A program made the position numbers and the translations under genes. The notes under the pieces are model-generated. The model was given only the letters and a program-made list of their open reading frames with translations. It was not told the DNA's origin and made no database searches. Shown here piece by piece: positions 19,927 to 50,597 of a stretch of 64,000 nt of DNA. Source of the DNA: a bacterium (lineage in GTDB: Bacteria > Bacillota > Clostridia > Oscillospirales > CAG-272); NCBI GenBank assembly GCA_963642885.1, contig CAVIJI010000008.1, positions 14,873-78,872 of the forward strand, given 5' to 3'. The first letter of the stretch is position 1. Every line of letters begins with the position of its first letter.

Positions 19927-19947
19927 TCCGCATTCACCTGAATATTT

Positions 19948-21018
19948 ATGAAAATAATCAATGCCGGAAATTACAACATTATAATCGCACGCAATTCCCT
20001 CTCTCACCTCGGTGAGCACATTCAAAATGCAATCGGCACGCACGACTGCAAGGTTCTTGTTATTTCAGATGATAACGTGTATAACCTGTATCACGAAACG
20101 GTCGAAATAAGCCTTACCGAGGCGGGATTTATTCCCGTGAAAGCCTTTGTTTTCGAACATGGTGAAAAAAGCAAAAACCTTAATACACTCGGCAATATAT
20201 TAAGCCATGCCGCGAACGAAGGTCTCACTAGAGGTGATATAATCGTCGCGGTCGGGGGTGGAGTTGTAGGAGATATTGCGGGATTCGCATCTGCGGTATA
20301 TCTGAGAGGCATAAGATATGTCTCGGTACCGACTTCGATTCTCGCGGTGGTTGACTCCTCCGTTGGCGGAAAAACCGCCGTTGATATACCCGAGGGAAAA
20401 AATCTTGTCGGTGCATTTCATGAACCGTCTCTCGTTCTCAGCGACCCGACATTGTTCTCCACTCTGCCGAACGAATTTGTTTCCGATGGTATGGCAGAGG
20501 TAATAAAATACGGTGTGCTCGGAAATACCGCACTGTTTTCGCTTCTCGAACAGTCCGATAACCTGTCTTCCGACATAGACGTCATCACTGCAGAGTGCAT
20601 CAAAGACAAGGTAGATGTGGTTTCCCGAGATTATCTCGACAAGGGCGAAAGACAAAAGCTTAATCTCGGTCATACATTCGGTCACGGTATAGAAGCCCTA
20701 TCGGGGTTCACCGTATCTCACGGTCATGCCGTTGCGTCGGGAATGTATTTCATTACCGAAAGTGCTGTCAGGTGCGGATTATGCGACAGAAACAGCCTTA
20801 TCCGTCTTGAAAAGCTTCTGAAAAAATATTCGCTCGACCCGTTTATTTATCGGAAATACAAAACAGCCGATTTGATTTCAGCATCATCGCGTGATAAGAA
20901 GAGAAACGGTGATAAAATAACATTGGTTGTTCCGCGTAAAATCGGCGAATGCGATCTTATGAAAATCAATTTCGATGATATCGAAAAAGTCATTACGGGA
21001 GAGTTCCGATGGAAATAA
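19948..21018 (+). CDS. aroB: 3-dehydroquinate synthase
   Basis: 356 aa. GGGVVGDIAGFASA nucleotide-binding motif and HTFGHGIE metal ligands. Confidence 0.92.
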   Translation: MKIINAGNYNIIIARNSLSHLGEHIQNAIGTHDCKVLVISDDNVYNLYHETVEISLTEAGFIPVKAFVFEHGEKSKNLNTLGNILSHAANEGLTRGDIIVAVGGGVVGDIAGFASAVYLRGIRYVSVPTSILAVVDSSVGGKTAVDIPEGKNLVGAFHEPSLVLSDPTLFSTLPNEFVSDGMAEVIKYGVLGNTALFSLLEQSDNLSSDIDVITAECIKDKVDVVSRDYLDKGERQKLNLGHTFGHGIEALSGFTVSHGHAVASGMYFITESAVRCGLCDRNSLIRLEKLLKKYSLDPFIYRKYKTADLISASSRDKKRNGDKITLVVPRKIGECDLMKINFDDIEKVITGEFRWK

Positions 21019-22262
21019 CACTCCTTTCGCCGAAACCGCACGGTACAATCAGTGCTATCGCTTCAAAATCGTATGCACACAGAATACTTATCTGTGCTGC
21101 TCTTGCCGATAAACAAACCATTATAAAATGCTCTTCACGTTTGAGTGATGATATTGAAGCAACTGTATCATGTCTACGCTCACTCGGAACCGCGATCGAT
21201 TGTACCGACGAAGGATTTATTGTAACACCGATAAAAACAGCTCCGACCGAAGCTATCCTTCACCCTCGTGAATCGGGTTCGACTTTACGCTTTCTGATTC
21301 CGATTGCCGCGGCTCTCGGAACCGAAACCGAATTCGTAACGGAAGGAAGACTTTCGTCTCGTCCTCTCTCGCCTCTCACAGATGAGCTTGAGAAACACGG
21401 TGCGCGATTTACATCGAACCCATTAAAAATCAAAGGCAAAATCACACCGGGCACATATACCATGAACGGTTCCGTCTCATCTCAATTCACGACGGGATTA
21501 ATGCTTTCCCTCTCCTATTTCGACACGAAAAGTGTTATAATATTGGAAGGAAATATCGAGTCGAAACCTTATATCGACTTAACAATACAGGTGCTTGCGT
21601 CATTCGGTGTAATTGTTTCCGAAGAAGAACATGCTTACACCGTGTGCGGCAAACCACGTTCGCCTTCGATTACAGCTGTTGAAGGTGACTGGTCAAACGC
21701 GGCGTTCATGCTTGCCATGGGTACCATTGCGGACAACACACACAATGACGGAATAACCGTTACGGGTTTAAACACGGCATCGGCTCAAGGTGACCGTAAA
21801 ATAGTCGATATTCTTTCCGAATTCGGAGCGAATGTGGCAATCGGCAACAGCAGTGTTACCGTGAAAAAATCAAAGCTTCACGGTATTGAGCTGAACGCAT
21901 CGGATATACCCGATCTCGTACCGATAATGTCGATTGTGGCCATGTCAGCCGAGGGAGACACCGTTATACGGAATTGCGGAAGACTCAGGTTCAAGGAAAG
22001 TGACAGAATCGAATCTATATGTGAGATGATAACAGCTTTCGGAGGAAACATTTCGGTAAATAACGATGTAATAACGATCCGCGGCGGAATAACCGAAAGA
22101 AACAATATCGTCATAGACTCATTCAACGACCACCGAATTGTTATGGCGGCGGCAGCAGGTTCAATACTCGCCGATTCACCCGTTACAATTAAAAATTGTG
22201 AAGCGGTTTCGAAATCATATCCGAGCTTTTTCGATGACTTCGGAAAGCTCTGTATTAATTGA
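21009..22262 (+). CDS. aroA: 3-phosphoshikimate 1-carboxyvinyltransferase (EPSP synthase)
   Basis: 417 aa. SKSYAHRILICAAL, GSTLRFL, and the DHRIVMAAA C-terminal motif. Overlaps the aroB stop by 10 nt. Confidence 0.92.
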   Translation: MEITLLSPKPHGTISAIASKSYAHRILICAALADKQTIIKCSSRLSDDIEATVSCLRSLGTAIDCTDEGFIVTPIKTAPTEAILHPRESGSTLRFLIPIAAALGTETEFVTEGRLSSRPLSPLTDELEKHGARFTSNPLKIKGKITPGTYTMNGSVSSQFTTGLMLSLSYFDTKSVIILEGNIESKPYIDLTIQVLASFGVIVSEEEHAYTVCGKPRSPSITAVEGDWSNAAFMLAMGTIADNTHNDGITVTGLNTASAQGDRKIVDILSEFGANVAIGNSSVTVKKSKLHGIELNASDIPDLVPIMSIVAMSAEGDTVIRNCGRLRFKESDRIESICEMITAFGGNISVNNDVITIRGGITERNNIVIDSFNDHRIVMAAAAGSILADSPVTIKNCEAVSKSYPSFFDDFGKLCIN

Positions 22263-22338
22263 AAGCATAGTTTCTTCGATTTTCAACCTTGAAATCAGTG
22301 TAAATTAATTTATTCTGCGTATCCTACAGGAGGATTAT

Positions 22339-23433
22339 ATGACATCGTACGGAAAAAACATTAAAATAGAGGTTTTCGGCGGGTCTCATGACCCCGAGAT
22401 AGGTGCAACAGTATGCGGAATCCCCGCGAATATATCGGTTGACACCGACAAGCTTCTGACTTTTATGCAAAGGCGAGCTCCCGGACAGGGTAAATATTCA
22501 ACAACACGCAAGGAAAGTGATATTCCGATATTTATAAGCGGTCTGGACGGTAATAACATTACTACCGGTGAAACACTCAAAATCATCATAAAAAACGAGG
22601 ATGCGCATTCCGATGAATACCTGAAAATCGTCTCTAAGCCACGTCCGTCACACGCCGATTATCCCGCGATAATCAAATCGGAAGGAAAAGCGGATCTTCG
22701 CGGAGGCGGTCATTTTTCCGGTAGACTGACGGCTCCTATATGTGCTGTCGGAGGCATACTCAAGAATGAGCTCGAAAAGCGCGGTATTTATATTTGCGCT
22801 CATATTGAATCCATAGGAAGCGCTCTTGATTACCGTTTTGATCCCGTAGATGTGTGCCTTGACGATTTCAACACCGTTCTCTCGAACAGTCTTCCTGTTC
22901 TCAATTCAAAATCAGCCGATAACATGCTGAAAATCATAGACGGGGCGAAAATGCAGCAGGATTCCGTAGGCGGAGTTATCGAATGTGCCGTCATAGGATT
23001 ACCTGTGGGTCTCGGTGAGCATATGTTCTGCGGTATGGAGTCGCGTATTTCCGCCGCGATGTTTTCGATTCCCGCAGTAAAGGGAATCGAATTCGGAGCG
23101 GGCTTCGCTTCCACAGATATGTACGGCTCGGAAAATAACGATCCATTCTACTATAACAACGGTGTTGTTCGCACAAAGACCAATAACTGCGGCGGAATTC
23201 TCGGAGGAATGACAGACGGTATGCCTCTCATATTCCGATGCGCCGTAAAACCGACACCCTCGATAGGACTGCAGCAGGAAACAGTCGATCTCACAACACA
23301 CGAAAATACCGTAATAAGCGTAGAAGGACGTCATGATCCGTGTATTGTTCCGCGCGCGGTACCCGTTGTGGAAGCTATGTGCGCGGCGGCAATATTCGAC
23401 ACGATGCTTGATAACGGAGAAACAGAAAAATAA
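22339..23433 (+). CDS. aroC: Chorismate synthase
   Basis: 364 aa. GGSHDPEIG, RPSHAD and GGGHFSGR motifs. Confidence 0.92.
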   Translation: MTSYGKNIKIEVFGGSHDPEIGATVCGIPANISVDTDKLLTFMQRRAPGQGKYSTTRKESDIPIFISGLDGNNITTGETLKIIIKNEDAHSDEYLKIVSKPRPSHADYPAIIKSEGKADLRGGGHFSGRLTAPICAVGGILKNELEKRGIYICAHIESIGSALDYRFDPVDVCLDDFNTVLSNSLPVLNSKSADNMLKIIDGAKMQQDSVGGVIECAVIGLPVGLGEHMFCGMESRISAAMFSIPAVKGIEFGAGFASTDMYGSENNDPFYYNNGVVRTKTNNCGGILGGMTDGMPLIFRCAVKPTPSIGLQQETVDLTTHENTVISVEGRHDPCIVPRAVPVVEAMCAAAIFDTMLDNGETEK

Positions 23434-23452
23434 TCTGAGGTTATCGATAATA

Positions 23453-24697
23453 ATGAAAGAATCAAACGAACTAAGATGCGGTCTTATAGGCAAACCGCTC
23501 GGACACAGTTATTCACCGCAAATACATTCACACCTCGGCGATTATGAATACCGGCTTATAGAGCTTGACGAAGACGATGTCGGCACATTCATAAAAGCAG
23601 GTGATTACGATGCTCTGAATGTAACAATCCCATATAAGAAAACAGTCATGCGGTATCTTGACGTTATATCACCCGAAGCTTTGAGAATCGGCTCGGTTAA
23701 TACCGTAACTCACATGCGGGATGGCAGGCTCAAAGGTGACAACACAGATTACTACGGTTTTTCTTACATGATTGACAAAGGCGAAATTAATATCGGCGGT
23801 AAAAAAGTGCTTATTCTCGGCAGCGGCGGAGCTTCTATGACCGCACGCACGGTAGCGGCTGACAGAGATGCGAGAGAGGTTGTAATCATCTCCCGTCACG
23901 GTAAGGATAACTACGACAACATTGCCGTTCATTTCGACTGTGATATTATTATCAACACCACTCCCGTGGGAATGTTTCCGAACAACGGTGATTCTCCGGT
24001 ATCTCTCGACTGTTTTCCGAACTTGTGCGGTGTTGTCGACATGATATACAATCCTTCGAAAACCGCTCTGATTTTGGAAGCCGAAGAAAAAGGTATACCG
24101 TGTATTTCGGGATTGTGCATGCTTGTCGCTCAGGCAAAAGCAGCATCAGAGCTTTTTACGGGACGAAAAATCGAAAACGAAATCATAGACAAAATTACAT
24201 CTTTGATTGAATTCGAGACAAAAAATATCACGCTGATCGGGATGCCGGGTGTCGGTAAAACAACAAACGGCAAATTAATCGCCGAAAAGCTCAATCGTAA
24301 ATTCATAGATATTGACGAGGAAATCGTAAAGCGAAGCGGTACGACGATTCCGCTGATATTCTCGGAGCACGGAGAAGAATATTTCAGAAATATCGAGCAC
24401 AATGTCCTCGCTGAGTACTCTAAAATGTCGGGATTGGTAATTTCATGCGGCGGAGGCGTGGTCACACGCCACGACAACTGCAACCTAATAAAGGAAAACA
24501 GTACCGTAGTTTTTCTCAGGCGTGATGTCTCCTCCCTGCCGAAGGAAGGAAGACCTGTTTCTCTCGCAAATGATCTGCAGTCTCTGTATGCAAAACGTCT
24601 TCCGTTATATATGTACGCGGCAGATGTGATATATGATATATACGGAGATTCCGATACTACATCCGATGATATAATCGATATTTTAAAGAAGCGCTGA
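23453..24697 (+). CDS. aroE/aroK: Bifunctional shikimate dehydrogenase / shikimate kinase fusion
   Basis: Start moved from 23333, which overlaps aroC, to ATG 23453. N-terminal AroE (GLIGKPLGHSYSPQIH, NVTIPYK, GSGGAS). C-terminal AroK with Walker A GMPGVGKTT and DIDEEI. Confidence 0.85.
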   Translation: MKESNELRCGLIGKPLGHSYSPQIHSHLGDYEYRLIELDEDDVGTFIKAGDYDALNVTIPYKKTVMRYLDVISPEALRIGSVNTVTHMRDGRLKGDNTDYYGFSYMIDKGEINIGGKKVLILGSGGASMTARTVAADRDAREVVIISRHGKDNYDNIAVHFDCDIIINTTPVGMFPNNGDSPVSLDCFPNLCGVVDMIYNPSKTALILEAEEKGIPCISGLCMLVAQAKAASELFTGRKIENEIIDKITSLIEFETKNITLIGMPGVGKTTNGKLIAEKLNRKFIDIDEEIVKRSGTTIPLIFSEHGEEYFRNIEHNVLAEYSKMSGLVISCGGGVVTRHDNCNLIKENSTVVFLRRDVSSLPKEGRPVSLANDLQSLYAKRLPLYMYAADVIYDIYGDSDTTSDDIIDILKKR

Positions 24698-39660: not shown

Positions 39661-41241
39661 TTATTTACCGCTTTCTCCGTAATTTGCCAGAACCCTTGCA
39701 GATGGATCATTTACATCACATCCTGCCCAATCTTTGTTCGGCATCCAGAATCCTGTAATCATTTCCGCCTGATCGGGATAATATTTTTCGAATAACTCCC
39801 TGTACAGCAATGACTCCTTGGTAAACGGAACGGCATATGTGTATTTTTTTATTCTGTTTTTAAATTCATCATCCGTGTACTTCTTTTCGGCAAATGCTTT
39901 CAAATCATCCACCATGGAATGCCCAACCGCATCACTGAATGCGGCTTTCTCTCTCATCAAGATGTTTCTCGGAAGCCATTCACCCTCAAATGCGTGTCTT
40001 AAAAGATATTTACCTATGCCCCGGCTGTTAATCTTCATTTCGGGATTAAGTGCTAAAACATACTGTGCAAAATCTATATCTCCGAACGGAACTCTCGCCT
40101 CAAGTGAATTTACCGAAATACATCTGTCGGCTCTCAGCACATCATACATGTGTATCTCGCGGATTCTTTTCTCGGATTCCTTTTGAAAAGCATAAGCCGA
40201 TGGAGCGTAATCGGTGTATTTATATCCGAAAAGCTCATCCGAAATTTCACCTGTCAATATCACACGCAAATCAGTGTTATCGTGTATATATTTGCATACC
40301 AAATACATACCTATCGAAGCACGAATTGTCGTAATGTCATATGAGCCGATTACAGACACAACCGTCGGTAATGCCTCTAAAACATCACTCTCGGTAATTA
40401 TTACCTCCGTATGTTCGGATTTAATATAATCCGCAACCTCTCTCGCATATTTTAAATCTATCGCATCGGTGCTCATTCCAATAGCAAAGGTTCTGATAGG
40501 CTTTTCCGAAAGTCTTGCGGCAATCGAGCAAACAAGCGATGAATCCAAGCCTCCGGATAATAAAAATCCTATCGGTGCATCTGCATCCAAACGCTTCTTT
40601 ACTCCGCTTATCAACTTATCTTTGATTTTCCGTGCCGATGTTTCGAGGTCATCGTATATTACACTCTTCGGGCATGAAATATCATTGTAGCAGATAAATC
40701 TACCTCTTTTGTAAAAATGTCCCGGAGGAAACGGTTTGATTTTATCACAGATACCTACAAGGTTTTTGGCTTCGCTTGCGAACAATATCCCGCCGCATTT
40801 ATCAAAGCCGTAAAACAAAGGACGTATTCCTATCGGATCACGTGCGGCAATTAACTCCTTTGCTTTGCCATCGTAAATAATGCATGCGAACTCTGCGTCC
40901 AACTTTGCGAACATATCGGTTCCGTATTCCTTGTATAAAGGAAGAAGAAGTTCACAATCCGATTCTCCGAAAAACTTATAACCTTTGCCTTCAAGCTCCG
41001 TTTTCAGGCTTCTGAAGCCGTATATTTCACCGTTGCATACAGAATAACAGTCTTCATACGAAAACGGCTGCATTCCCCTCTCATCCGGTCCCATAATCGA
41101 AAGTCTGTGAAATCCGAGTATGCCGCCATCGACATTTATAATCCTCGACATATCCGGCCCACGTGATACTGTTTTATCAAAGCCTTCGATGAATTTTTCC
41201 TGTGATATTGTATTTCCGTAATATCCCATGATAGAACACAT
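39661..41241 (-). CDS. asnB: Asparagine synthase (glutamine-hydrolysing)
   Basis: 526 aa. N-terminal Cys2 (MCSIMGYYG) and PP-loop SGGLDSS. Confidence 0.9.
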   Translation of the reverse strand: MCSIMGYYGNTISQEKFIEGFDKTVSRGPDMSRIINVDGGILGFHRLSIMGPDERGMQPFSYEDCYSVCNGEIYGFRSLKTELEGKGYKFFGESDCELLLPLYKEYGTDMFAKLDAEFACIIYDGKAKELIAARDPIGIRPLFYGFDKCGGILFASEAKNLVGICDKIKPFPPGHFYKRGRFICYNDISCPKSVIYDDLETSARKIKDKLISGVKKRLDADAPIGFLLSGGLDSSLVCSIAARLSEKPIRTFAIGMSTDAIDLKYAREVADYIKSEHTEVIITESDVLEALPTVVSVIGSYDITTIRASIGMYLVCKYIHDNTDLRVILTGEISDELFGYKYTDYAPSAYAFQKESEKRIREIHMYDVLRADRCISVNSLEARVPFGDIDFAQYVLALNPEMKINSRGIGKYLLRHAFEGEWLPRNILMREKAAFSDAVGHSMVDDLKAFAEKKYTDDEFKNRIKKYTYAVPFTKESLLYRELFEKYYPDQAEMITGFWMPNKDWAGCDVNDPSARVLANYGESGK

Positions 41242-41251
41242 ATTATACTCC

Positions 41252-41509
41252 GTTTAAGCACAACTTTATTGAATTTCAGGACGAACTGTGCTGTCCGCGG
41301 TGCCACCTGTATTATCCGCATAGGATCTCTTTACTGCTCATTATTTAAGCATTGCAAATTAACGCTTTGCACACGCCGTACCTACTGTCATATATATGAG
41401 TTCGGTTTGGGGCTCGAAGGTGTTATTCGCGCAGGCATCGGAATACGTTTCTCACTGTCACGTACTCACTGTGTCCTCTGTATCTGCGGTACTTCTCCTC
41501 GTCACAGCC
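41252..41509 (-). promoter_or_regulatory. T-box riboswitch, Asn specifier (AAC)
   Basis: Minus-strand reading: GUGACGAGGAGAAGUA stem I base; specifier loop CGAAU-AAC-A (AAC at 41424-41422); T-box AGGUGGCACCGCGG (41308-41295), where UGGC predicts discriminator G. No U-tract terminator is visible before the GGAG SD at 41251-41248. Confidence 0.8.
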
Positions 41510-41566
41510 TTTTTTCACTTTATTTTTTAATTATAATTGTTTTATTCTCGGTAAGCCGATTCTACT

Positions 41567-43660
41567 TTATCTGACTCCGAAAAGAAGCTCACCGTATGAC
41601 GGATAAGGCCAATTTTCACCTGAGGCAATAGTTTCCATTTCATCCGCGGGAATACGCATTGCTTTCATATCCGGAATAATCGTTGATTTATAAAACTCGG
41701 CAAGCTCGGCACAGTCTTTAATCGATTTTGCCGAAATAAGATCGAGCTCCGTCTTCTTTACAGCCGCATTGCATGCTCCGATTAATGCGCACAGATTCTT
41801 AATACTTTCCTTTTCATAGGTGCAATCCACATCAACGTCAAATGATGTTTTTACGGCAGCATTTTGCGCAAGCTCTGCCGAATATTTACTCATCGCGGGA
41901 AGTATATCTTTTCTCGCCATATCGAGCATTGTGAGTGCTTCTATATTTATTATCTTACAATAATTTTCAAGAAGTACCTCATGTCTTGCGATAAGCTCCG
42001 TTTTGCTGTACACATTATGACTTGTGAACAGCAATACATTTTTATCGTCCAACATATGCGAGAGTGCATCGGGAGTGGTTTTGAAATTGTACAAACCTCT
42101 CTTTTCCGCTTCCTTTACCCAAGATTCATCGTATCCGTCGCCGTTAAAGATTATTCTCTTATGCTCTTTAATTGTTTTCTTAATAAGCTCATGCAAATCT
42201 GCTTCGAAATTGTTTGAACCCTCGAGTATATCGGCAAACTGCTTCAATTCCTCGGCAACAGTCGTATTCAGCACCGTATTTGCACATGATATCGAAGCGG
42301 CTGAGCCGAGCATACGGAATTCGAATTTATTTCCCGTGAACGCGAAAGGACTTGTTCTGTTTCTGTCCGTCGTATCTTTGGGGAACTTGGGAAGAGTATG
42401 TACACCGATACGCATTAACTCTTTTTGCTTCGAATCGTACTTTTCGTCCTTCTCGATTGCTTCGAGTATTTCCGAAAGATCTGTACCGAGAAACATCGAA
42501 ACTATCGCAGGCGGTGCCTCGTTAGCACCTAATCTGTGATCGTTTCCGGCGGATGCTACCGAAATTCTGAGAAGATCCTGATATTCATCAACGGCTTTGA
42601 TTACGGCACAAAGGAAAAGTAAGAATTGCGCATTTTCGTACGGTGTTTCTCCGGGTTCGAGAAGGTTGGTTCCTTTATCCGTTGATATGGACCAGTTGTT
42701 ATGCTTACCGCTTCCGTTCACACCCGCAAACGGCTTTTCATGAAGCAAACATACCATTCCGTGACGTTTTGCAACCTTTTGCATCATTTCCATAGTAATT
42801 TGATTGTGATCAGCCGCAATATTCGTCGTAGTAAATATCGGTGCCATTTCATGCTGTGCGGGAGCTACTTCATTATGTTCTGTTTTCGCCAAAACTCCCA
42901 GCTTCCACAATTCTTCGTTGAGTTCCTTCATAAATGAGGCTACACGTGGTTTTATGGCACCGAAATAGTGATCGTCAAGTTCCTGTCCCTTCGGAGCCAT
43001 TGCACCGAACAAAGTTCTTCCCGTATATATCAAATCTTTTCTCTTGTCATACAGATTCTTATCGACTAAGAAATATTCCTGTTCGGGGCCTACCGTCGTT
43101 TTTACCGATGAAACATCATCGTTTCCGAATAATTTCAAAACGCGTAAAGCCTGACGGTTTATCGCCTCCATGGAACGGAGAAGTGCTGTTTTCTGATCGA
43201 GAGCCTCACCGCCGTACGAACAAAATACCGTCGGAATATAGAGCACACCGTCTTTTATAAACGCATATGAAGTTGCATCCCACGCCGTATATCCTCTCGC
43301 TTCAAATGTAGCACGCAATCCGCCCGACGGGAATGAAGAAGCATCGGGCTCACCGCGCATCAGCTCCTTACCTGAGAATTCCATTATCACTTTTCCGTTA
43401 GGCTTCGGCGAGATAAAGCTGTCGTGCTTCTCGGCAGTAACACCCGTCATCGGCTGGAACCAATGAGTATAGTGAGTTGCCCCTTTTTCGATTGCCCAAT
43501 CTTTCATTGCGTTCGCGACAACAGTAGCTACTTCAGTATCAAGATGCTTTCCGTTTTTTATTGTTTTTTGTAATGTCTTATATGTTTCCTTGGGAAGTCT
43601 TGCCTCCATCACGGAATCATCGAAAACCATTGACGCAAATAATTCGGTTATTGTACTCAT
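41567..43660 (-). CDS. glnN: Glutamine synthetase type III
   Basis: Start moved to ATG 43660 with a GGAGG RBS. About 697 aa. [28 protein letters not shown]... and length typical of GSIII. Confidence 0.88.
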
Positions 43661-43680
43661 CTTAATCCTCCAAATGAATG

Positions 43681-43749
43681 AAAAAAGCGACAATCGGGCA
43701 GGAAAATATCGGTCTGAACAGACCGTATTTTACCGACGCCATTGTCGCT
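43681..43749 (-). terminator. Long interrupted terminator hairpin in the glnN leader
   Basis: Minus strand: AGCGACAAT (43749-43741) pairs with ATTGTCGCT (43694-43686), followed by T6. The interior holds GGUAAAAUA/UAUUUUCC and CGGUCU-GUUC-AGACCG helices. Ends 20 nt before the RBS. Confidence 0.7.
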
Positions 43750-43816
43750 GTTAATCATATTAATATTATAAGTGAACACCTGTATCATTAACGGTTGTCC
43801 GCTTACTATGTGCATT

Positions 43817-43845
43817 ATTATATCACCCACATAAAGTCTTGTCAA
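43817..43845 (-). promoter_or_regulatory. Consensus promoter of glnN
   Basis: Minus strand: TTGACA (43845-43840), 17-nt spacer, TGaTATAAT (-10 at 43822-43817). Confidence 0.75.
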
Positions 43846-43875
43846 TCAGTAAAATAAAAAAACACGTCTGACACC

Positions 43876-43904
43876 TTGACAAATTTTTGCCGTCAAAGTA
43901 TAAT
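43876..43904 (+). promoter_or_regulatory. Consensus promoter of glnA
   Basis: TTGACA (43876-43881), 17-nt spacer, TATAAT (43899-43904). The spacer carries the inverted repeat TTGAC...GTCAA. Confidence 0.75.
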
Positions 43905-43970
43905 ATTTTCTGAAATTTTGATAAAATCATTCGAATTTATCACTTAATCACATTAACTCGGAGTAATTCT

Positions 43971-45185
43971 ATGAAATATACCGCTGATGAAGTTTTTGAT
44001 TATATCGAACAGGAAGACGTAAGCTTTGTTCGCCTTGCATTCTGTGATGTTCACGGCAGACAAAAAAATGTTTCCGTTATGCCGCATGAACTGAAGCGTG
44101 CCTTCGAATACGGTGTTTCATTTGACGCCACGGCTATTAACGGCTTTACATTTGATTCTAACGGAAAATCCGACCTCCTTCTTTTCCCGATTCCTTCGAC
44201 ATTGAACGTACTTCCGTGGAGACCTTCTCACGGTAAGGTTGTAAGAATGTTCTGTAATATAAAATATCCCGACGGCAGAATGTTCGAAAAAAACTCTCGT
44301 GCTGTACTGGAAAACGCTATATCCGAAGCAAAAGAAATGGGAATTACAGTCAAAATCGGATCCGAATATGAATTTTACCTTTTCAAAACCGATGAAGACG
44401 GAAATCCGACAAAAATACCGTTTGACAAAGCGGGGTATATGGATGTAGCCCCCGAGGATAAGGGAGAAAACGTACGCCGTGAAATATGTCTCACATTAAT
44501 CGATATGGATATACAGCCCGAATGCTCTCACCATGAAGAAGGGCCCGGTCAAAACGAAATCGACTTCCGTTACAGTGACGCTATGACAGCCGCAGACAAT
44601 GCGATGAATTTCATCACCGTTGTTAAAGCTACGGCAACACACAACGGTTTGTACGCGGATTTTTCTCCAAAGCCACTTTCCGATAAACCGGGTAACGGAC
44701 TCCACATAAATATGTCAATCTCATCGGACAGCGGAATTGATTACAGTGATTATTTCATAGCGGGTATATTGGACCACATATATGACATGAGTTTGATTCT
44801 CAACCCATGCGAGGAGTCTTACGCAAGACTCGGAAAGCTGAAAGCACCGAAATATATAAGCTGGGCTGCCGAAAACCGTTCTCAATTAATCAGAATTCCC
44901 GCGGCTTCAGGTGAATTCAAAAGATTCGAGCTTCGCTCACCCGACCCCATGGCAAATCCGTATCTCGCTTATGCCGTATTGATTTATGCCGGATTAGACG
45001 GTATCAGGAGAAAGCTTAACTTATCTAAGCCATCGGATATCGATCTTTATTCAGCGGACAACGATACGCTATCCGAATTTAAAAAACTTCCCGAAACATA
45101 TACCGAAGCGGTCAATGCCGCTCTTTCAAGCGACTTTATTTCATCAATACTTCCATTTGACGTTCGCTCTCTCATAAACAGATAA
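43971..45185 (+). CDS. glnA: Glutamine synthetase family protein (short type I)
   Basis: 404 aa. HHEEGPGQNEIDFRY, SPKPLSDKPGNGLHINMS and RIPA...ELRSPDPMANPYLA motifs. Confidence 0.82.
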   Translation: MKYTADEVFDYIEQEDVSFVRLAFCDVHGRQKNVSVMPHELKRAFEYGVSFDATAINGFTFDSNGKSDLLLFPIPSTLNVLPWRPSHGKVVRMFCNIKYPDGRMFEKNSRAVLENAISEAKEMGITVKIGSEYEFYLFKTDEDGNPTKIPFDKAGYMDVAPEDKGENVRREICLTLIDMDIQPECSHHEEGPGQNEIDFRYSDAMTAADNAMNFITVVKATATHNGLYADFSPKPLSDKPGNGLHINMSISSDSGIDYSDYFIAGILDHIYDMSLILNPCEESYARLGKLKAPKYISWAAENRSQLIRIPAASGEFKRFELRSPDPMANPYLAYAVLIYAGLDGIRRKLNLSKPSDIDLYSADNDTLSEFKKLPETYTEAVNAALSSDFISSILPFDVRSLINR

Positions 45186-45195
45186 GGAGGCAAAA

Positions 45196-45786
45196 ATGCT
45201 TGAAGAAACGTCTCCTTATCGTGTATTGATTGTATCAGACACAGATAAAGTCTCCGATTATATAACGGATTTGCTTCCGAAACGTGAGTTTTCGCCAATA
45301 CTTCGGGCAAGCAGTGCAGGCGATGCAAAGCGCATGCTTCTATCATCGGAATGTGATATTGTGATAATCAACTCTCCCTTACCGGACGAATTCGGCACTG
45401 AGCTGGCTATTGATATTTCGGAGGATCTGTCAAAAACAGCGGTAATGCTTCTCGTAAAAAGTGACAGCTACGATGCTGTTTCGTACAAAGTAGAAAAGAG
45501 CGGTGTTCTCACATTGCCTAAGCCGAATACCAAACAAAATATATATGCGTCAGTGCGGCTTCTCGCGGCGATGAGCATGAAATTAAATCAACTTGAGAAA
45601 AAAAATCGTTCTCTGCAGGATAAAATGACCGATATTCGTACTGTCAACAGAGCTAAATGGCTTCTTATAGAGAATCTGAACATGACGGAAAAGGAAGCAC
45701 ATTATTATATCGAAAAGCAGGCTATGGATATGCGAATGACACGCCGCGACGTTGCTTTCGGAATAATCCGTACATACGATAAATAA
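45196..45786 (+). CDS. ANTAR-domain RNA-binding antiterminator with pseudo-receiver domain
   Basis: 196 aa. REC-like N-terminus in which the phospho-acceptor position reads DIVIINSPLP (Asn, not Asp). Coiled-coil linker. ANTAR motif IRTVNRAKWLLIENLNMTEKEAHYYIEKQAMDMRMTRRDVAFGII. Lies 10 nt after the glnA stop. Confidence 0.85.
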   Translation: MLEETSPYRVLIVSDTDKVSDYITDLLPKREFSPILRASSAGDAKRMLLSSECDIVIINSPLPDEFGTELAIDISEDLSKTAVMLLVKSDSYDAVSYKVEKSGVLTLPKPNTKQNIYASVRLLAAMSMKLNQLEKKNRSLQDKMTDIRTVNRAKWLLIENLNMTEKEAHYYIEKQAMDMRMTRRDVAFGIIRTYDK

Positions 45787-45846
45787 AACAAAACCATCGT
45801 TTTTAACCGTAAAAATAACTCGGTTAAATCGCGATGGTTTTGTTTT
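45785..45846. terminator. Bidirectional terminator
   Basis: AAAACAAAACCATCG (45785-45799) pairs with CGATGGTTTTGTTTT (45832-45846), with an inner AACCG/CGGTT stem. Confidence 0.85.
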
Positions 45847-45855
45847 ATGGATTTT

Positions 45856-46023
45856 TTACAGCACAATCAAAAGAATGGAGACCACGGAAATCAGTGCACC
45901 GACAACCGATGTTATCGTGTAGATTTTCTTTGATTCCTTATCATCCTTTTCTTTCGCGAGATAATAAAGTCCTGCTCCGAGAATAAGTACCCCGATGATA
46001 AGTCCGATGATTTTTACAGCCAT
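45856..46023 (-). CDS. Small two-TM membrane protein (55 aa) coupled to the P-type ATPase gene
   Basis: The ATG at 46023 lies 2 nt after the ATPase stop, with a GGAGG inside the ATPase 3' end. MAVKIIGLIIGVLILGAGLYYLAKEKDDKESKKIYTITSVVGALISVVSILLIVL. Confidence 0.6.
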   Translation of the reverse strand: MAVKIIGLIIGVLILGAGLYYLAKEKDDKESKKIYTITSVVGALISVVSILLIVL

Positions 46024-46025
46024 AT

Positions 46026-47897
46026 TTATTTTTTCCTCCATGTTAATAAAAATGCAGAATTGGTAATTACAAGAACAGAACCTGCGTTGTGTACAAGAGC
46101 CCCTACAACGGGATTCAGTGTGCCGACAATAGCCAATGCTATTGCGATAAAGTTCAATGTCATGGAAAACGTCATGTTGAGCTTGATAACAGTCATCATC
46201 CGTTTTGAGAGTGCAACAAGATGCGGAAGTTCTTTAACCTCATCGTCAACCAAAGCAATATCTGCGGCATCAACCGCAATATCACTGCCCACACCGCCCA
46301 TGGCAATACCGATATCCGCTTTTTTGAGTGCGGGAGCATCGTTAATACCATCGCCGATCATACAGACTGACATATCTTTGTTTTGATATTCACCGATATA
46401 TTTCAGTTTATCTTCAGGCAAACAATTTGCACGTACTTCTTTAATGTGTAGATTTTCGGCTATATTTTTCGCCGCATTTTCGTTGTCACCCGTTAAAAGT
46501 ACAGGCTGAATTCCCAGATTCGATAACGATTCAATGGTTTGGGCACTTTCTTTACGCAAGGTATCCGATAATGCGATAAATCCTGCGAATACACCGTCTA
46601 TGGCAATATATGTTACGGTACAACCCTTTGCTATATACGATTCGGCGTCATGATTTTTCTCGAATACGATGCCGTTTTCGGAAAGCAATTCTCTGTTTCC
46701 GGCTAAAACATCTTTTCCGTCAACTCGCGCACAAACTCCCCTTCCGGGTATCATTTTAAAATTATCAGCCTGACTCAGTGCTGCTCCGCTTTTTTTATAA
46801 CAGTTGACAATAGCTTTTCCGAGAGGATGCTCGGATAACTGCTCTGCCGAAGCTGCCGATTTGTATATGTCATCCTTGCCTATCTCTTTAACAACACTTA
46901 CAACGCCGACAACCTCGGGTGTTCCGTAGGTTAATGTGCCCGTCTTGTCAAATGCGATTACTTTGGCTTTTGATAACCTCTCGAGAGCATCGCCTTCCCG
47001 CACGAGAAAACCGTGCTTTGTAGCATTTCCGATAGCAGCCATTATGGCGGTCGGTGTAGCCAAAACCAATGCACAAGGGCAGAACACGACCAATATTGTA
47101 ACCGCACGGATAATTTTACCTGTAAATAGCCATGTTAATCCCGCGGCGGAAAGAGCGAATACAACTATCCATGTTGCCCAGCTGTCTGCCAAACCGACTA
47201 TCTTAGCCTTACCCGCATCGGCAGACTGTACCAAACGAATCATTCTTTGGATAGAACTGTCTTCTCCTACTTTTGTCGCTTCCATTTCAAAAGCTCCGAA
47301 TTGGTTAACAGTACCGCTTGATACACTATCTCCGACGGATTTATCTACGGGAAGTGATTCTCCTGTCATTACAGCCTGATTGATTGATGTCTGACCGGAA
47401 ATAATAACACCGTCGACGGGAACTCCCTCACCCGGTAAAACACGAATACGATCCCCTACCGCTACATTTTCGGCGGGAATAATATTTTCCGTACCGTCTT
47501 TGATTACTCTTGCAGTTTGAGGTGTCAGGTGTACCAGCTTTTCGATGCCCGCTCTTGCTCTCGCAACTGTCAATTCCTCAAGCAAAGCTCCGAGCTGCAT
47601 GATAAACGCCACTTCACCTGCGGCAAAATCCTCACCGATGCAAACAGATGCTATCAACGCAAGAGATACAAGCACATCCGCTTTGATATCGAACGCCGTT
47701 ATCAAGCCGATAATCGCCTCTAAAATTATAGGAACTCCACATAAAATTATGGCAACCCATGCCATATCAAACGGGAACGGCTGAAACTTTAACAGACTGC
47801 AAACAACCGCTATGCCCGATATCACAAGTAAGGTTATATCCTTCTTAATTCCACCGAGACTCAGTAGATCCTGAAGTTTTTCCATTGCGCGTTTCAT
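46026..47897 (-). CDS. P1B-type heavy-metal-translocating ATPase lacking an N-terminal metal-binding domain
   Basis: 623 aa. CPC (FCPCALVLATPTA), DKTGTLT, GDGINDAPAL and TM6 VHNAGSVLV. The N-terminus starts directly in membrane segments with no CxxC. Confidence 0.88.
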   Translation of the reverse strand: MKRAMEKLQDLLSLGGIKKDITLLVISGIAVVCSLLKFQPFPFDMAWVAIILCGVPIILEAIIGLITAFDIKADVLVSLALIASVCIGEDFAAGEVAFIMQLGALLEELTVARARAGIEKLVHLTPQTARVIKDGTENIIPAENVAVGDRIRVLPGEGVPVDGVIISGQTSINQAVMTGESLPVDKSVGDSVSSGTVNQFGAFEMEATKVGEDSSIQRMIRLVQSADAGKAKIVGLADSWATWIVVFALSAAGLTWLFTGKIIRAVTILVVFCPCALVLATPTAIMAAIGNATKHGFLVREGDALERLSKAKVIAFDKTGTLTYGTPEVVGVVSVVKEIGKDDIYKSAASAEQLSEHPLGKAIVNCYKKSGAALSQADNFKMIPGRGVCARVDGKDVLAGNRELLSENGIVFEKNHDAESYIAKGCTVTYIAIDGVFAGFIALSDTLRKESAQTIESLSNLGIQPVLLTGDNENAAKNIAENLHIKEVRANCLPEDKLKYIGEYQNKDMSVCMIGDGINDAPALKKADIGIAMGGVGSDIAVDAADIALVDDEVKELPHLVALSKRMMTVIKLNMTFSMTLNFIAIALAIVGTLNPVVGALVHNAGSVLVITNSAFLLTWRKK

Positions 47898-47910
47898 TTA
47901 CATCCTCCTT

Positions 47911-47961
47911 ATACCTTATGGGGTATGTGTATATTATACTTATAGGGGTATATGTTGTCAA
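47911..47961 (-). promoter_or_regulatory. ATPase promoter with two CsoR-type operator boxes
   Basis: Minus strand: TTGACA (47961-47956), 17-nt spacer, TATAAT (47938-47933). Box ATACCCCTATAAGTAT (47951-47936) fills the spacer. Box ATACCCCATAAGGTAT (47926-47911) lies just downstream of the -10. Confidence 0.7.
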
Positions 47962-47971
47962 TGGTGAAAAT

Positions 47972-48002
47972 AAAAAAATCAGTCGCTCGGACTGATTTTT
48001 TT
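47972..48002. terminator. Terminator between csoR and the ATPase promoter
   Basis: AATCAGTC / GACTGATT hairpin flanked by A7 and T-run. Confidence 0.75.
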
Positions 48003-48004
48003 AT

Positions 48005-48280
48005 TTATTGCATATTGGCGAATCTTTCTACGGCCTTGGTAAAGCTCTCTATGGTTTTATCCGCATCCCCGTGCTCTATACCATCACGGACACAATGCTT
48101 TATATGTCCCTCGAGAACTACTTTACCGCATCCGTTCAAAGCGGATTTAGCCGCGTTAATCTGTGCCAGTACATCTTCACAAGGCACATCTTCATCAACC
48201 ATTCTCTCTATAGCTTGTACCTGACCTATAATTTTTTTTAATCTGCGATGCAGATTTTCCGCATCCATGCATTGCTTCAT
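48005..48280 (-). CDS. csoR: CsoR/RcnR-family metal-sensing repressor (C-H-C ligand pattern)
   Basis: 91 aa. LHRRLKKIIGQVQAIERMV, Cys in VPCEDV, and His/Cys in HIKHC. Confidence 0.88.
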   Translation of the reverse strand: MKQCMDAENLHRRLKKIIGQVQAIERMVDEDVPCEDVLAQINAAKSALNGCGKVVLEGHIKHCVRDGIEHGDADKTIESFTKAVERFANMQ

Positions 48281-48294
48281 ACTTTATCATCTCC

Positions 48295-48345
48295 GTACTG
48301 TAAGGGGTATATGTACATTATAATACCGATTGCGGAAAAAGTCAA
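48295..48345 (-). promoter_or_regulatory. csoR promoter with a third operator box
   Basis: Minus strand: TTGACT (48345-48340), 17-nt spacer, TATAAT (48322-48317), followed by ATACCCCTTACAGTAC (48310-48295). Confidence 0.65.
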
Positions 48346-48390
48346 TACATCTTCGTACCTGCGAACTGTACGATAATTACACGTGCCTGC

Positions 48391-49062
48391 TCAGTCATCC
48401 TCAAATTTCCTCAAGCCTGCTACCTCGGAAACAGGCAACGAGAAACATATAGCTCCCGCACTCGTGTTTGTACCTGCGTTTTTGTTAATAGCACGCATTA
48501 TTTCAGATTTTTTGTCGGCAGACGAAACAATGTAAATCATATCCTTTTCTTCAGCGAGAGAAACTCCGAAAAACTTTTCCGTTTTTGTTTTTCCGGTTCC
48601 TTTAGCATGCAGAACGGTACCTCCCGTTGCCCCCGCCGAACGAGCCGCATCCATTACCATATCAGAGTAACCTTCATTCAGAACCACAATTATCAACTCA
48701 TATTCAAATTCCATGACCGGCTTTGATTCTCCGAGCCTTAGCCCATCTGCTAAATACTCGAGAGTTTTTCCTCCTCCTACTGATTTCATCGGTATCGACA
48801 TCATAATCCCGTTTCCGGGTATATCTATATACATCTTTTTCTTAGCGGTTTTTATCAGCTTTTTGGTTGATTCTGCATCCGCGACGGTACTTATTATCGC
48901 CTTTTCGGTTGTCTCCAGTCCGTAAATGGCAAGATTTTCCGAAGTTGCCGTTCCCTTGCCGAGATTAGTAAGTACCATTGACAGTGACAATTCGTGATGT
49001 ATATCAAGCAATGCAGCTGCCTTGGAGCGATCGGTTATAGTAATAACATAATACAATTCCAT
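48391..49062 (-). CDS. Tandem P-II-like domain protein (two P-II-like repeats, about 223 aa)
   Basis: Start moved to ATG 49062 (GAGGAGGG RBS); the track's extra 66 N-terminal residues overlap the upstream gene. Two beta-alpha-beta repeats: MELYYVITITDRSKAAALL... and YELIIVVLNEGYSDMVMDAARSAGATGGTVLHAKGTG. Confidence 0.6.
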   Translation of the reverse strand: MELYYVITITDRSKAAALLDIHHELSLSMVLTNLGKGTATSENLAIYGLETTEKAIISTVADAESTKKLIKTAKKKMYIDIPGNGIMMSIPMKSVGGGKTLEYLADGLRLGESKPVMEFEYELIIVVLNEGYSDMVMDAARSAGATGGTVLHAKGTGKTKTEKFFGVSLAEEKDMIYIVSSADKKSEIMRAINKNAGTNTSAGAICFSLPVSEVAGLRKFEDD

Positions 49063-49073
49063 AATTGCCCTCC

Positions 49074-50597
49074 TCAATTCTTCCAAAGCTCGATAATTTC
49101 GTCGTCGGCAAATTCGGGAAGCGGTGCTTCTGCTTCGACCTTCTTCGACTTGAAGACGTAAATCGCACCCATAACCTGTACTGTAATCAGAGGCATCATC
49201 GCAACCATAGCTACTATGCCGAATGCATCCGTCATAATATTTCCTCCGATTGCGGAACAAGCACCCATGGCAAACGGAAGCATGAATGTAGCGGTGAGAG
49301 GTCCCGACGCAACACCACCCGAGTCAAAGGCTATAGCGGTAAATGTCGGCGGGACGAAGAAACTCAAAGCAAGCGCTATAATATATCCCGGAAGCATAAA
49401 CCACATTATCGAAATTCCGGTTATGACTCTGATCATCGCCAAGCCCATTGCGGCTGAAATTGCTATTGAAAGGCTCAAACCCATAGCTTTTGCCGATATA
49501 GCACCCGCACTTAATTCCTCAACCTGCTTATTCAGTACATGAACCGCAGGTTCGGCATTTATTATAAACCAACCCATCAGCATAGCGAGCGGAATAAGTA
49601 CAAGCTTAAGACTACGTTCCACAAGTATCTGACCGAGTACATAACCGAGAGACGAAAATCCTACATTAACTCCGGTCAGAAACAAAACAAGTCCTATATA
49701 AGTATACACTATACCGATAATTATCTTTATCAGCGGACGTTTTTTTAATTTGAGTGAAAAAATCTGGTATATTATGAAAAATACAAATATCGGCAGGAGA
49801 GCGAATGCCACTTCCCCGAGATAATCCGGAAGCTCGAGCAAATATTCCCGACCCAACTCAACCGAATCCGCATAGCTTTTGACCAATGTCGAAACCGATG
49901 CCTCGGCACCGTCATTATATATGAAGCTCAGGATAAGCACTGCCAGTATAGGTCCGATAGAACACAGTGCAATCAATCCGAAGCTGTCCGATTTTGCGTT
50001 TTCGTCACTTCGAATGGATGCCACACCCACACCGAGCGCCATAATAAACGGAACTGTTATCGGTCCTGTTGTAACACCGCCCGAGTCGAAAGCTACTGAC
50101 AGAAAACCTTTATCCGCAAACAGCGCCAACAGAAACAGCACGGCATAAAAAGCTACCAGCAGCCATTTCAACGAGATTGCGAAAAGTATTCTGAACATAC
50201 TGACAAGAAGGAACAAACCTACACCGACCGATACGGTCATTATGAGGACCGTCTTATCTATCGCGGGAGCATACGTAGCAAGAACCTGCAAATCCGGTTC
50301 GGCAAGTGTGATAATAAAACCGAGGACAAAGCTGAGTACTAATATAAATCCCAGATTCCTTGATTTTGTCATTTTCGCTCCGACCAGATTACCCATTTGC
50401 GTCATAGACACATCGGAGCCTATATTAAATAAGCTCATTCCGATGATAATCATAACCGAGCCGATCAGAAACGATAGCATAAGTCCGCTTTCGATAGGGA
50501 TAAAAAACAGACAAAGCACTGCTACAATCAGTGTAATCGGCAGCACCGACGCGACTGACTCACGCACCTTTTCCTTAAATAAGTCTTTGGGGAGCAA
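49074..50597 (-). CDS. Fused double DUF1538 membrane protein
   Basis: 507 aa, polytopic. LPITLIV...IITLAEPDLQVLA in the first half and a repeat-like INAEPAVHVLNKQVEE in the second. AFDSGGVTTGP and AFDSGGVASGP are duplicated. Confidence 0.7.
   Translation of the reverse strand: MLPKDLFKEKVRESVASVLPITLIVAVLCLFFIPIESGLMLSFLIGSVMIIIGMSLFNIGSDVSMTQMGNLVGAKMTKSRNLGFILVLSFVLGFIITLAEPDLQVLATYAPAIDKTVLIMTVSVGVGLFLLVSMFRILFAISLKWLLVAFYAVLFLLALFADKGFLSVAFDSGGVTTGPITVPFIMALGVGVASIRSDENAKSDSFGLIALCSIGPILAVLILSFIYNDGAEASVSTLVKSYADSVELGREYLLELPDYLGEVAFALLPIFVFFIIYQIFSLKLKKRPLIKIIIGIVYTYIGLVLFLTGVNVGFSSLGYVLGQILVERSLKLVLIPLAMLMGWFIINAEPAVHVLNKQVEELSAGAISAKAMGLSLSIAISAAMGLAMIRVITGISIMWFMLPGYIIALALSFFVPPTFTAIAFDSGGVASGPLTATFMLPFAMGACSAIGGNIMTDAFGIVAMVAMMPLITVQVMGAIYVFKSKKVEAEAPLPEFADDEIIELWKN

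Follow-up and report, generated by a model that had tools for sequence, protein, structure and literature searches.

How is transcription of glnN, which encodes a type III glutamine synthetase (GS), controlled when a long intrinsic terminator stands between its consensus promoter and its start codon? The question is raised by a 64,000-nucleotide stretch of DNA (hereafter the window, in whose numbering all coordinates are given) from a Clostridia bacterium of the CAG-272 lineage of Oscillospirales (assembly GCA_963642885.1, contig CAVIJI010000008.1, positions 14,873 to 78,872 of the forward strand), in which glnN faces a divergent operon encoding a GS-like protein and an ANTAR-domain regulator. 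A first-pass annotation made from the sequence alone had noted a small hairpin, here called H, in one arm of the terminator. Comparison with related loci suggests that the glnN leader is probably a protein-dependent terminator/antiterminator switch of the ANTAR type that works with one hexaloop hairpin instead of two.

The glnN leader can form two mutually exclusive hairpins

The leader is about 150 nt long and is read, like glnN, from the minus strand. It comprises the following features.

43840-43845, minus strand: -35 element TTGACA of the glnN promoter (promoter scan, 12/12, 17-nt spacer)
43817-43825, minus strand: extended -10 element TGaTATAAT (promoter scan, 12/12 including the extended TG)
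43768-43806, minus strand: 5' stem-loop GUAAG.GGACA.CCGU-UAAUGAU-AC.GG.UGUUC.CUUAU, lineage-specific (RNAfold)
43750-43767, minus strand: A/U-rich spacer that separates the 5' stem-loop from the terminator and that minimum-free-energy and centroid folds both leave unpaired
43687-43749, minus strand: intrinsic terminator hairpin, 64 nt, interrupted (RNAfold)
43734-43747, minus strand: hairpin H, the proposed antiterminator, with stem CGAC (43747-43744)/GUCG (43737-43734) and loop AAUGGC (43743-43738)
43681-43686, minus strand: terminator U-run T6, directly abutting the stem (sequence reading)
41567-43671, minus strand: ribosome-binding site GGAGG (43671-43667), ATG (43660) and glnN, type III GS of 697 aa

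The promoter that the first-pass annotation had given as TTGACA-17-TGaTATAAT at 43845-43817 was confirmed at 12 of 12 positions together with its extended TG. Transcription is predicted to start at about 43811-43809, within the sequence CACAUA, and orthologous leaders repeat the same order of -10 element, five to seven nucleotides and CAUA(A). Inspection by eye, without a formal scan, found no GlnR/TnrA box (TGTNA-N7-TNACA) between the divergent promoters. GlnN itself carries the Pfam domains GSIII_N, Gln-synt_C and Gln-synt_C-ter.

The long interrupted terminator previously described, with exact closing arms, two inner helices and T6, was recovered in every part at the same coordinates of the minus strand. 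Its closing arm AGCGACAAU (43749-43741) pairs with AUUGUCGCU (43694-43686) to form a basal stem of 9-10 bp, above which lie the two inner helices. Folded by itself with RNAfold the hairpin reaches -29.6 kcal/mol; the value for the entire leader is -46.1 kcal/mol, which 200 dinucleotide shuffles place at z = -4.9. The leader hairpin has what makes an intrinsic terminator, a stable G+C-containing stem-loop and an immediate U-run; a simple terminator scanner caught only its inner helix because the full stem is interrupted. Two details of the earlier description changed. The gap between the U-run and GGAGG, given there as 20 nt, is 9 nt (GGAGG at 43671-43667); and the structures of the supposed 150-nt structured leader are real, but conservation covers only the hairpin and terminator in the 3' ~70 nt; the 5' ~60 nt, which include the stem-loop 43806-43768, are restricted to the closest relatives.

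H was found exactly as first described (CGAC-AAUGGC-GUCG, 43747-43734, overlapping the terminator 5' arm). It has a 4-bp stem and a hexaloop, AAUGGC, whose first base is A and whose fourth is G (A1/G4), in agreement with the definition of an ANTAR target as a stem of at least 3 bp with a hexanucleotide loop carrying A1 and G4 (Ramesh 2012). Experimentally supported ANTAR hairpins include eutP P1 (CAC-AAUGGC-GUG), eutA P2 (AAGC-AAAGGC-GCUU) and nasF P2 (GAU-AAAGGC-GUC), and the published consensus sequences are SYAC-AAHGRH-GUDB and RRGY-AAHGDV-GCYY (Ramesh 2012, PMC3369931, Fig. S1/S2 for the hairpins). With these H shares the closing C-G pair and the AANGGC loop, its type matching P1 of eutP and eutG. 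Judged by stem and loop, H is an ANTAR-type hairpin, of the same kind as the validated targets of EutV, NasR and AmiR.

The whole of H sits within the 5' arm of the terminator, so that the two structures exclude each other. Alone it folds with only -4.5 kcal/mol against -29.6 for the terminator, and forcing it to form costs +12.1 kcal/mol and deprives the 3' arm beside the U-run of its normal partner. Being so much weaker than the terminator, H needs a stabilising factor. The best match of a covariance model of H in the 64-kb window, with 21 bits and an E-value of 0.002, covers 43756-43725, although the model was built from 119 sequences of which that of the window is one. The second-best match, at 23145-23176, lies within the chorismate synthase gene and has no terminator, and a GUC-GAUGGC-GGC match near 41133 is inside asnB; both were put down to chance. 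A pattern-plus-fold scan found no H module in the 64-kb window other than that of glnN.

When the leader between 43811 and 43681 (minus strand) is folded with H locked, the 3' arm GAUUGUCGCUU set free in this way finds a partner, in the RNAfold prediction, in the 5' region AAGCGGACAAC at about 43804-43794. The AAGCGGACAAC region is similar to the terminator's own 5' arm, and it may be an auxiliary anti-terminator strand or the relic of a duplication.

H-terminator modules recur before nitrogen genes of Firmicutes

Related leaders were taken from 80 glnN loci of species-representative genomes and 80 from metagenomes (GlnN identity 59-78%), and further loci were sampled through ANTAR homologues, which brought the total to 170. 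The GlnN scans of genomes and metagenomes gave identities of at most 78%, exact-protein look-ups returned identical leaders, and informative sister species were obtained only through the ANTAR homologues. Loci that share the divergent GS-like/ANTAR operon have short leaders, in which a consensus promoter is followed, after a few nucleotides, by H, terminator and U-run. Across this family H has 3-5 bp, a closing C-G pair and a loop AA(N)GG(C/U), and its 3' half starts the terminator. A scan for H, terminator and U-run, in which overlap with the terminator was a requirement, found 49 modules in the first 80 loci against about one in shuffled sequence, and 190 against 8 in all 160 loci. Besides the module of the window there are about 180 others, spread over Clostridia, Erysipelotrichia and Negativicutes, and 177 distinct modules were analysed. 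Their loops are AAAGGC, AAUGGC, AACGGC and similar, with AGC-AAAGGC-GCU as the commonest member, and the hexaloop sequence is nearly invariant in distant Firmicutes. Median energies are -3.4 kcal/mol for H and -22.7 kcal/mol for the terminator, and the U-run follows 44 nt after H begins. The conserved length amounts to only 14-18 nt, the remaining hairpin varying freely.

For the analysis of covariation we used 119 distinct sequences that had been picked by loop and terminator only and folded from loop position 4 onward; as the 5' half of H was excluded from the selection, the test is not circular. The four variable pairs of the H stem are paired in 69-91% of these sequences, with AU, GC, CG and UA all present. 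Over all stem cells 87.1% are paired against 62.5% after shuffling (0/500 shuffles), and the covariation score is 0.69 against 0.23 for shuffled sequences (0/500) and 0.08-0.16 for slid partners. Changes occur on both sides in four of the five pairs, as expected of compensatory change. In the comparison of related leaders that had been proposed in the first-pass annotation, covariation thus maintains the stem of H across about 120 independent leaders. Since the terminator has no need of the self-complementarity of H, this argues for an alternative fold.

The genes that lie downstream of the modules are the following.

glnN: 98 modules, a count that reflects sampling bias
ammonium transporter (amtB): 17 modules
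glutamate synthase GATase_2 (gltB): 17 modules
CTP synthase (pyrG): 6 modules
AsnA: 1 module; AsnB: 1 module; class I glutamine amidotransferase (GuaA-like): 1 module

By gene content this is a coherent nitrogen/glutamine regulon, and one that appears to extend past ammonium assimilation to the glutamine-consuming synthesis of nucleotides and asparagine. Predicted ANTAR targets of Clostridia likewise stand before GS, GS+ANTAR pairs, amtB, PII and glutamate synthase (Ramesh 2012, PMC3369931, Table S2). The modules at targets other than assimilation genes were seen at 5259-5311 of locus L169, before six pyrG-like open reading frames (ORFs; L081-L160), near 9690 of L024, at 2834-2880 of L015 and near 4100 of L058.

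An Rfam search of 41000-48500 at E <= 10 returned nothing in the glnN leader, only the T-box of asnB and spurious matches, and at E <= 1 none of seven canonical family loci had a match on its modules. The family is large and apparently undescribed, a set of nitrogen-gene switches of Firmicutes.

The modules have one hexaloop, close to the 5' end of the transcript

The canonical ANTAR substrate has two hexaloop hairpins, P1 and P2, joined by a linker of 5-12 nt; EutV needs both, an altered linker abolishes function, and linkers of 14 nt or lengthened by 20 nt (+20) are not tolerated (PMC3369931, PMC8934654). NasT has the same requirements. Such a tandem pair was found neither in the window nor, above chance, in the family. 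The only other A1/G4 candidate in the window, the G-U-rich GAU-ACAGGU-GUU, starts 39 nt upstream of H, which leaves a linker of 27 nt. Among the 177 modules a second A1/G4 hexaloop within 40 nt was found upstream in 10 (16.6 expected from shuffles) and downstream in 20 (13.5 expected). The first-pass annotation had seen a single hexaloop hairpin and no tandem pair; this holds for the window and for the whole family, where no partner rises above chance. The apical loop of the terminator was considered as P2 and rejected: apical loops differ in size and sequence, and AACGGA in L013 is an isolated case.

The position of the promoter bears on the same point. A promoter matching at least 10 of 12 positions lies within 60 nt upstream of 106 of the 177 modules, and in 71 of these 106 the -10 element ends 11-14 nt before H; H would consequently begin about 2-6 nt after the predicted start, which leaves no space for a P1. 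Seven leaders (L011, L024, L030, L056, L081, L084 and L168) contain two H hairpins, each with its own terminator and U-run, and by this layout they are two switches in series and not a dual hairpin. As far as sequence and folding go, the element is one hexaloop at the 5' end of the transcript and not the canonical tandem pair. A literature search for single-hexaloop antiterminators found no description of one. In the EutV-RNA crystal structure the ANTAR dimer contacts a single hexaloop, and single-hexaloop sites have been suggested as possible where the kinetic constraint of a transcribing polymerase is absent (Walshe 2022, PMC8934654).

The canonical arrangement could still apply in the window if the 5' stem-loop (43806-43768) were P1 and H were P2. 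Its apical loop, UAAUGAU, includes AAUGAU, a loop sequence known from published ANTAR hairpins, and the sister species L164 and L166, whose ANTAR proteins are 92% and 82% identical to that of the window, have a stem-loop at the same place, of other sequence and with RAUG in or near the loop. Against this, RNAfold gives a 7-nt loop closed by U-A and not a C-G-closed hexaloop; A1 and G4 are not kept, the loops of L164 and L166 being UAAGAU and AUGAGA; 18 nt or more lie between the stem-loop and H, beyond the tolerance of EutV; the covariance model of H found no H-like match at the 5' stem-loop; and in the roughly 180 other modules the promoter 11-14 nt upstream leaves a P1 no room. We regard a canonical dual-hairpin substrate as unlikely, although the 5' stem-loop may have a distant, non-canonical P1 role in the lineage of the window.

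What the 5' stem-loop represents is better approached from its neighbours. It is absent from almost all of the ~180 other modules. Between L164 and the window H and the basal stem of the terminator are identical, and the inner helix is wholly different and still paired. The more distant loci L168, L081 and L084 have a full first module at the position of the 5' stem-loop, and MAFFT aligns the stem-loop of the window opposite the first terminator hairpin of L168. Because of this positional homology with tandem modules, the 5' stem-loop is probably the vestige of a promoter-proximal module that no longer terminates and is now a plain stem-loop. The 5' region of the window is weakly similar to its own H region (local alignment score 20 against 14.8 +/- 2.9, p = 0.07), and that the stem-loop is a decayed copy of H is offered as a hypothesis.

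The neighbouring ANTAR regulator is a pseudo-receiver co-encoded with a GS paralogue

The divergent operon of the window has the following features.

43876-43904, plus strand: consensus promoter of the GS-like/ANTAR operon (12/12 match)
43971-45185, plus strand: GS-like protein, 404 aa (Pfam Gln-synt_N and Gln-synt_C)
45196-45786, plus strand: ANTAR regulator with pseudo-receiver, 196 aa (Pfam ANTAR, 54 bits; Response_reg, 34.7 bits)

The GS-like protein scores 335 bits against an NCBIfam GlnA equivalog cut-off of 429 and aligns to residues 29-432 of the 467-residue PDB chain 8ufj_A, with metal- and substrate-binding motifs kept. On this alignment it is a GSI-alpha paralogue that has lost about 35 C-terminal residues. 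Its gene is always co-encoded with the ANTAR gene in the loci examined.

The ANTAR protein aligns end to end with Rv1626, EutV and AmiR, and has N59 at the position of the phospho-acceptor Asp of Rv1626 and EutV (Asp54). Of 23 family members, 19 have N at the acceptor position; the others have A, Q, S, L or D. With Asn in place of the acceptor Asp the protein would not be phosphorylatable, and no kinase gene was found among the genes neighbouring the ANTAR gene. The two residues with which EutV contacts G4, an Arg and a Lys, are conserved, and EutV Tyr164 is replaced by His, as in AmiR. By its alignment the regulator is an AmiR-like pseudo-receiver ANTAR protein. Among the 120 homologues listed of 4255 (E <= 1e-10; P0009-P0120), most have only the ANTAR domain in precomputed Pfam annotation; a receiver half too degenerate for a Pfam call would fit a family-wide pseudo-receiver.

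An ANTAR protein is encoded near the leader not only in the window (45196-45786) but, with conserved synteny, in its relatives. Every locus with an ANTAR gene beside glnN (22 of 22) has a module in its glnN leader; where no such gene is seen the figure is 69 of 128, the flanks examined being only 3-4 kb, so that ANTAR genes may lie elsewhere in those genomes. The binomial chance of 22/22 is about 2e-5, in a sample whose species are not independent. Modules also stand before the GS-like/ANTAR operon itself, in L022, L081, L084, L095, L147, L168, L169 and L170; at the loci sampled through ANTAR homologues they precede this operon (L168, L169, L170), pyrG (L169) and glnN (L164, L170). The original proposal that glnN is under regulated termination, with the neighbouring ANTAR protein as effector, draws support from the loop type, the covariation, the overlap with the terminator and this 22/22 co-occurrence. 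The fallback given with it, an undescribed nitrogen-responsive RNA element, is unneeded if, as it appears, the RNA is a variant ANTAR substrate.

Could H be recognised by some other factor, an RNA-binding protein or a small RNA pairing with the AANGGC loop, and the ANTAR gene be close by only through a shared nitrogen function? In favour of this, the examined flank lacks an ANTAR gene at about half of the glnN loci that bear a module, but such genes may lie outside the 3-4 kb flanks. The loop and closing pair of H are moreover identical to those of validated ANTAR substrates, and the 22/22 co-occurrence and the modules on the ANTAR operon itself point the same way. Another factor seems to us about as improbable as the canonical dual hairpin.

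A proposed single-hexaloop antitermination switch

The single-hexaloop ANTAR switch would work as follows. In the off state, transcription would begin at the consensus promoter and the 64-nt hairpin and U-run would terminate it by default, 20 nt before the ATG. Under nitrogen (glutamine) scarcity, the ANTAR protein, encoded 1.5 kb away, would bind and hold H. As H is the first 14 nt of the terminator 5' arm, locking it would prevent the basal stem beside the U-run from forming, and polymerase would then transcribe glnN and probably continue into asnB-gltBD. H emerges first and so would form first, yet it would lose to the terminator unless held by protein. Because phosphorylation is not possible with Asn for Asp, the activity of the ANTAR protein is probably set through protein-protein contact, the likely contact being the co-encoded, truncated GS paralogue. 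Why one hairpin may suffice is a matter of speculation: H is the base of the terminator and would be out 30-60 nt before its competitor, so the protein could load without a P1. Three parts of the scheme are inferred: that the ANTAR protein binds H, that regulation runs in this direction, and that the GS paralogue serves as sensor. By analogy that paralogue is the probable nitrogen/glutamine sensor of the ANTAR protein, and it may be an enzyme, a sensor or both.

On the same strand 3' of glnN lie a T-box, asnB, gltB and gltD (Pfam).

41274-41514, minus strand: T-box leader between glnN and asnB (Rfam RF00230, 110.7 bits, E 1.5e-24; full-length)

The T-box begins about 50 nt past the glnN stop, and asnB-gltBD may be under two serial attenuators, the ANTAR module at the start of the operon and then the T-box.

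Several observations weigh against this switch. The characterised ANTAR antiterminators (EutV, NasR, AmiR and NasT) all need two hexaloops, and a single-hairpin substrate contradicts the only mechanism tested. The window's own GS-like/ANTAR leader (66 nt) has no H module by either the pattern-plus-fold scan or the covariance model. A module is still present at 54% of the glnN loci whose 3-4 kb flank contains no ANTAR gene, and the link to a particular ANTAR protein comes from co-localisation in a subset of loci, among related species that are not independent. The GS paralogue, finally, retains all catalytic motifs and may just be an enzyme co-transcribed with the regulator.

The leader might also be an unregulated attenuator or a 5' stabilising structure, with H an accident of a self-complementary arm, and the far greater stability of the terminator would suit this. 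The stem of H, however, covaries independently of the terminator pairing, the hexaloop is nearly invariant, the modules are confined to nitrogen and glutamine genes, and there would be little point in separating an essential assimilation gene from its 12/12 promoter by a strong terminator that is always active; we hold this to be very unlikely. Least credible of all is that the leader binds a metabolite as a riboswitch, such as the glutamine-sensing glnA RNA, or that it is a T-box or attenuates through a leader peptide: cyanobacterial nitrogen genes do use glutamine riboswitches, a T-box lies 2 kb downstream before asnB and the ORF 43845-43657 spans the leader, but Rfam gave no leader match at E <= 10 and none on seven family members at E <= 1, conservation is limited to 14-18 nt while the rest of the hairpin is free to vary, and the ORF was rejected as a leader peptide, having no ribosome-binding site and being broken in a sister species (L164; by reading).

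Other features of the window

A pair of genes at 48391-50597 (minus strand) encodes a DUF1538 membrane protein (507 aa) and then a second protein, which overlaps the first in the ORF list and has a P-II domain at its C terminus. Both genes also occur together in the related contigs L161, L164 and L167, near the nitrogen cluster and without an H module. Between the convergent genes for the ANTAR protein and a P-type ATPase, a long perfect hairpin AAAACAAAACCAUCG...CGAUGGUUUUGUUUU (45751-45873, both strands) looks like a bidirectional terminator; a weak, sub-threshold Rfam match to ohsC on both strands at this place was taken as spurious. Upstream of the P-type ATPase gene, and adjoining a gene for a CsoR-type repressor, is another 12/12 promoter (47933-47961, minus strand), and a terminator-like hairpin at 47927-48002 (plus strand) has a sub-threshold OrzO-P match. 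A full shikimate/chorismate operon occupies 18922-24697 (plus strand), with DAHP synthase, DHQ synthase, EPSP synthase, chorismate synthase and a shikimate dehydrogenase-kinase fusion.

Relation to known systems and significance

The closest RNA parallel is found in the eut leaders of Enterococcus faecalis, which are controlled by EutV/EutW (PMC3369931; PMC8934654) and likewise combine an ANTAR protein with a short, C-G-closed AANGNN hexaloop hairpin. The eutP P1 loop, AAUGGC, is that of the window, and AGC-AAAGGC-GCU of eutA P2 is the commonest family member; in both systems the 3' half of the hairpin overlaps the 5' arm of an intrinsic terminator. The eut leaders, in contrast, have two hairpins 5-12 nt apart, whereas the modules have one, in most cases 2-6 nt past the start. 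EutV is a phosphorylated response regulator with a kinase; the regulator of the window has an Asn acceptor and no adjacent kinase. The signal of the eut system is ethanolamine and that of the module family presumably nitrogen status.

On the protein side the nearest likeness is to AmiR/AmiC and the amiE leader of Pseudomonas aeruginosa, where a non-phosphorylated pseudo-receiver ANTAR protein with a separately encoded ligand-sensing partner carries out nitrogen-related antitermination. AmiR and the regulator of the window both have His at the aromatic RNA-contact position. The partner of AmiR is the periplasmic-binding-protein-like AmiC and that of the window regulator a GS paralogue, whose part is presumed, and the amiE leader has been described with dual hairpins. 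For a GS as nitrogen sensor of a regulator there is a conceptual precedent in Bacillus subtilis, where feedback-inhibited GS controls TnrA and GlnR by direct protein contact; those are DNA-binding, MerR-type regulators, whereas the regulator of the window is an RNA-binding ANTAR protein.

NitR (formerly GlnR) of Clostridium saccharobutylicum is an ANTAR regulator reported to induce the genes for GS and glutamate synthase (GOGAT) by antitermination under nitrogen limitation (Stutz 2007, cited in PMC6316151). The glnA-nitR/gltAB cluster has the same neighbourhood as the window (GS, ANTAR, glutamate synthase), with the ANTAR gene directly 3' of the GS gene. The window differs in that a type III GS is the regulated gene and that the adjoining GS is truncated and below the GlnA equivalog cut-off. 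The predicted ANTAR regulons of Desulfotomaculum, Carboxydothermus and Alkaliphilus and the amtB target of C. thermocellum (Ramesh 2012, Table S2) cover the same gene classes and required overlap with a terminator, but they were predicted with a two-hairpin model of 45-64 nt, and in the module family second hairpins are no commoner than expected by chance. That ANTAR proteins control nitrogen genes by antitermination is already established, and the basic reading is not new; what appears to be new is the architecture, that is the single hexaloop, its position at the 5' end of the transcript and the pairing of a pseudo-receiver ANTAR protein with a GS paralogue.

A larger class may be involved, of Bacillota ANTAR antiterminators whose single hexaloop sits right at the start of the transcript (mostly +2 to +6), served by non-phosphorylatable ANTAR proteins that take their signal from a dedicated GS paralogue and with a regulon of glnN, amtB, gltB, pyrG, asnA/asnB and guaA; we see the case for this wider proposal as evenly balanced. 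If it is true, neither the requirement for two hairpins nor the model in which one dimer binds two hexaloops of fixed short spacing in succession, both of them essential, would be general; that model was built on the eut, nas and ami leaders. If the modules work as predicted, one hexaloop would be enough for antitermination when it is the base of the terminator and the first part out of the polymerase. Search models with two hairpins would then be expected to under-detect such targets. Beside AmiC, GS paralogues would then count among the proteins that sense for ANTAR regulators, the one described here being a candidate glutamine sensor. The module is a very small (~45-65 nt) protein-gated transcriptional switch of potential use in engineering, and in abundant, little-studied Firmicutes of gut and rumen it would govern a compact nitrogen/glutamine regulon.

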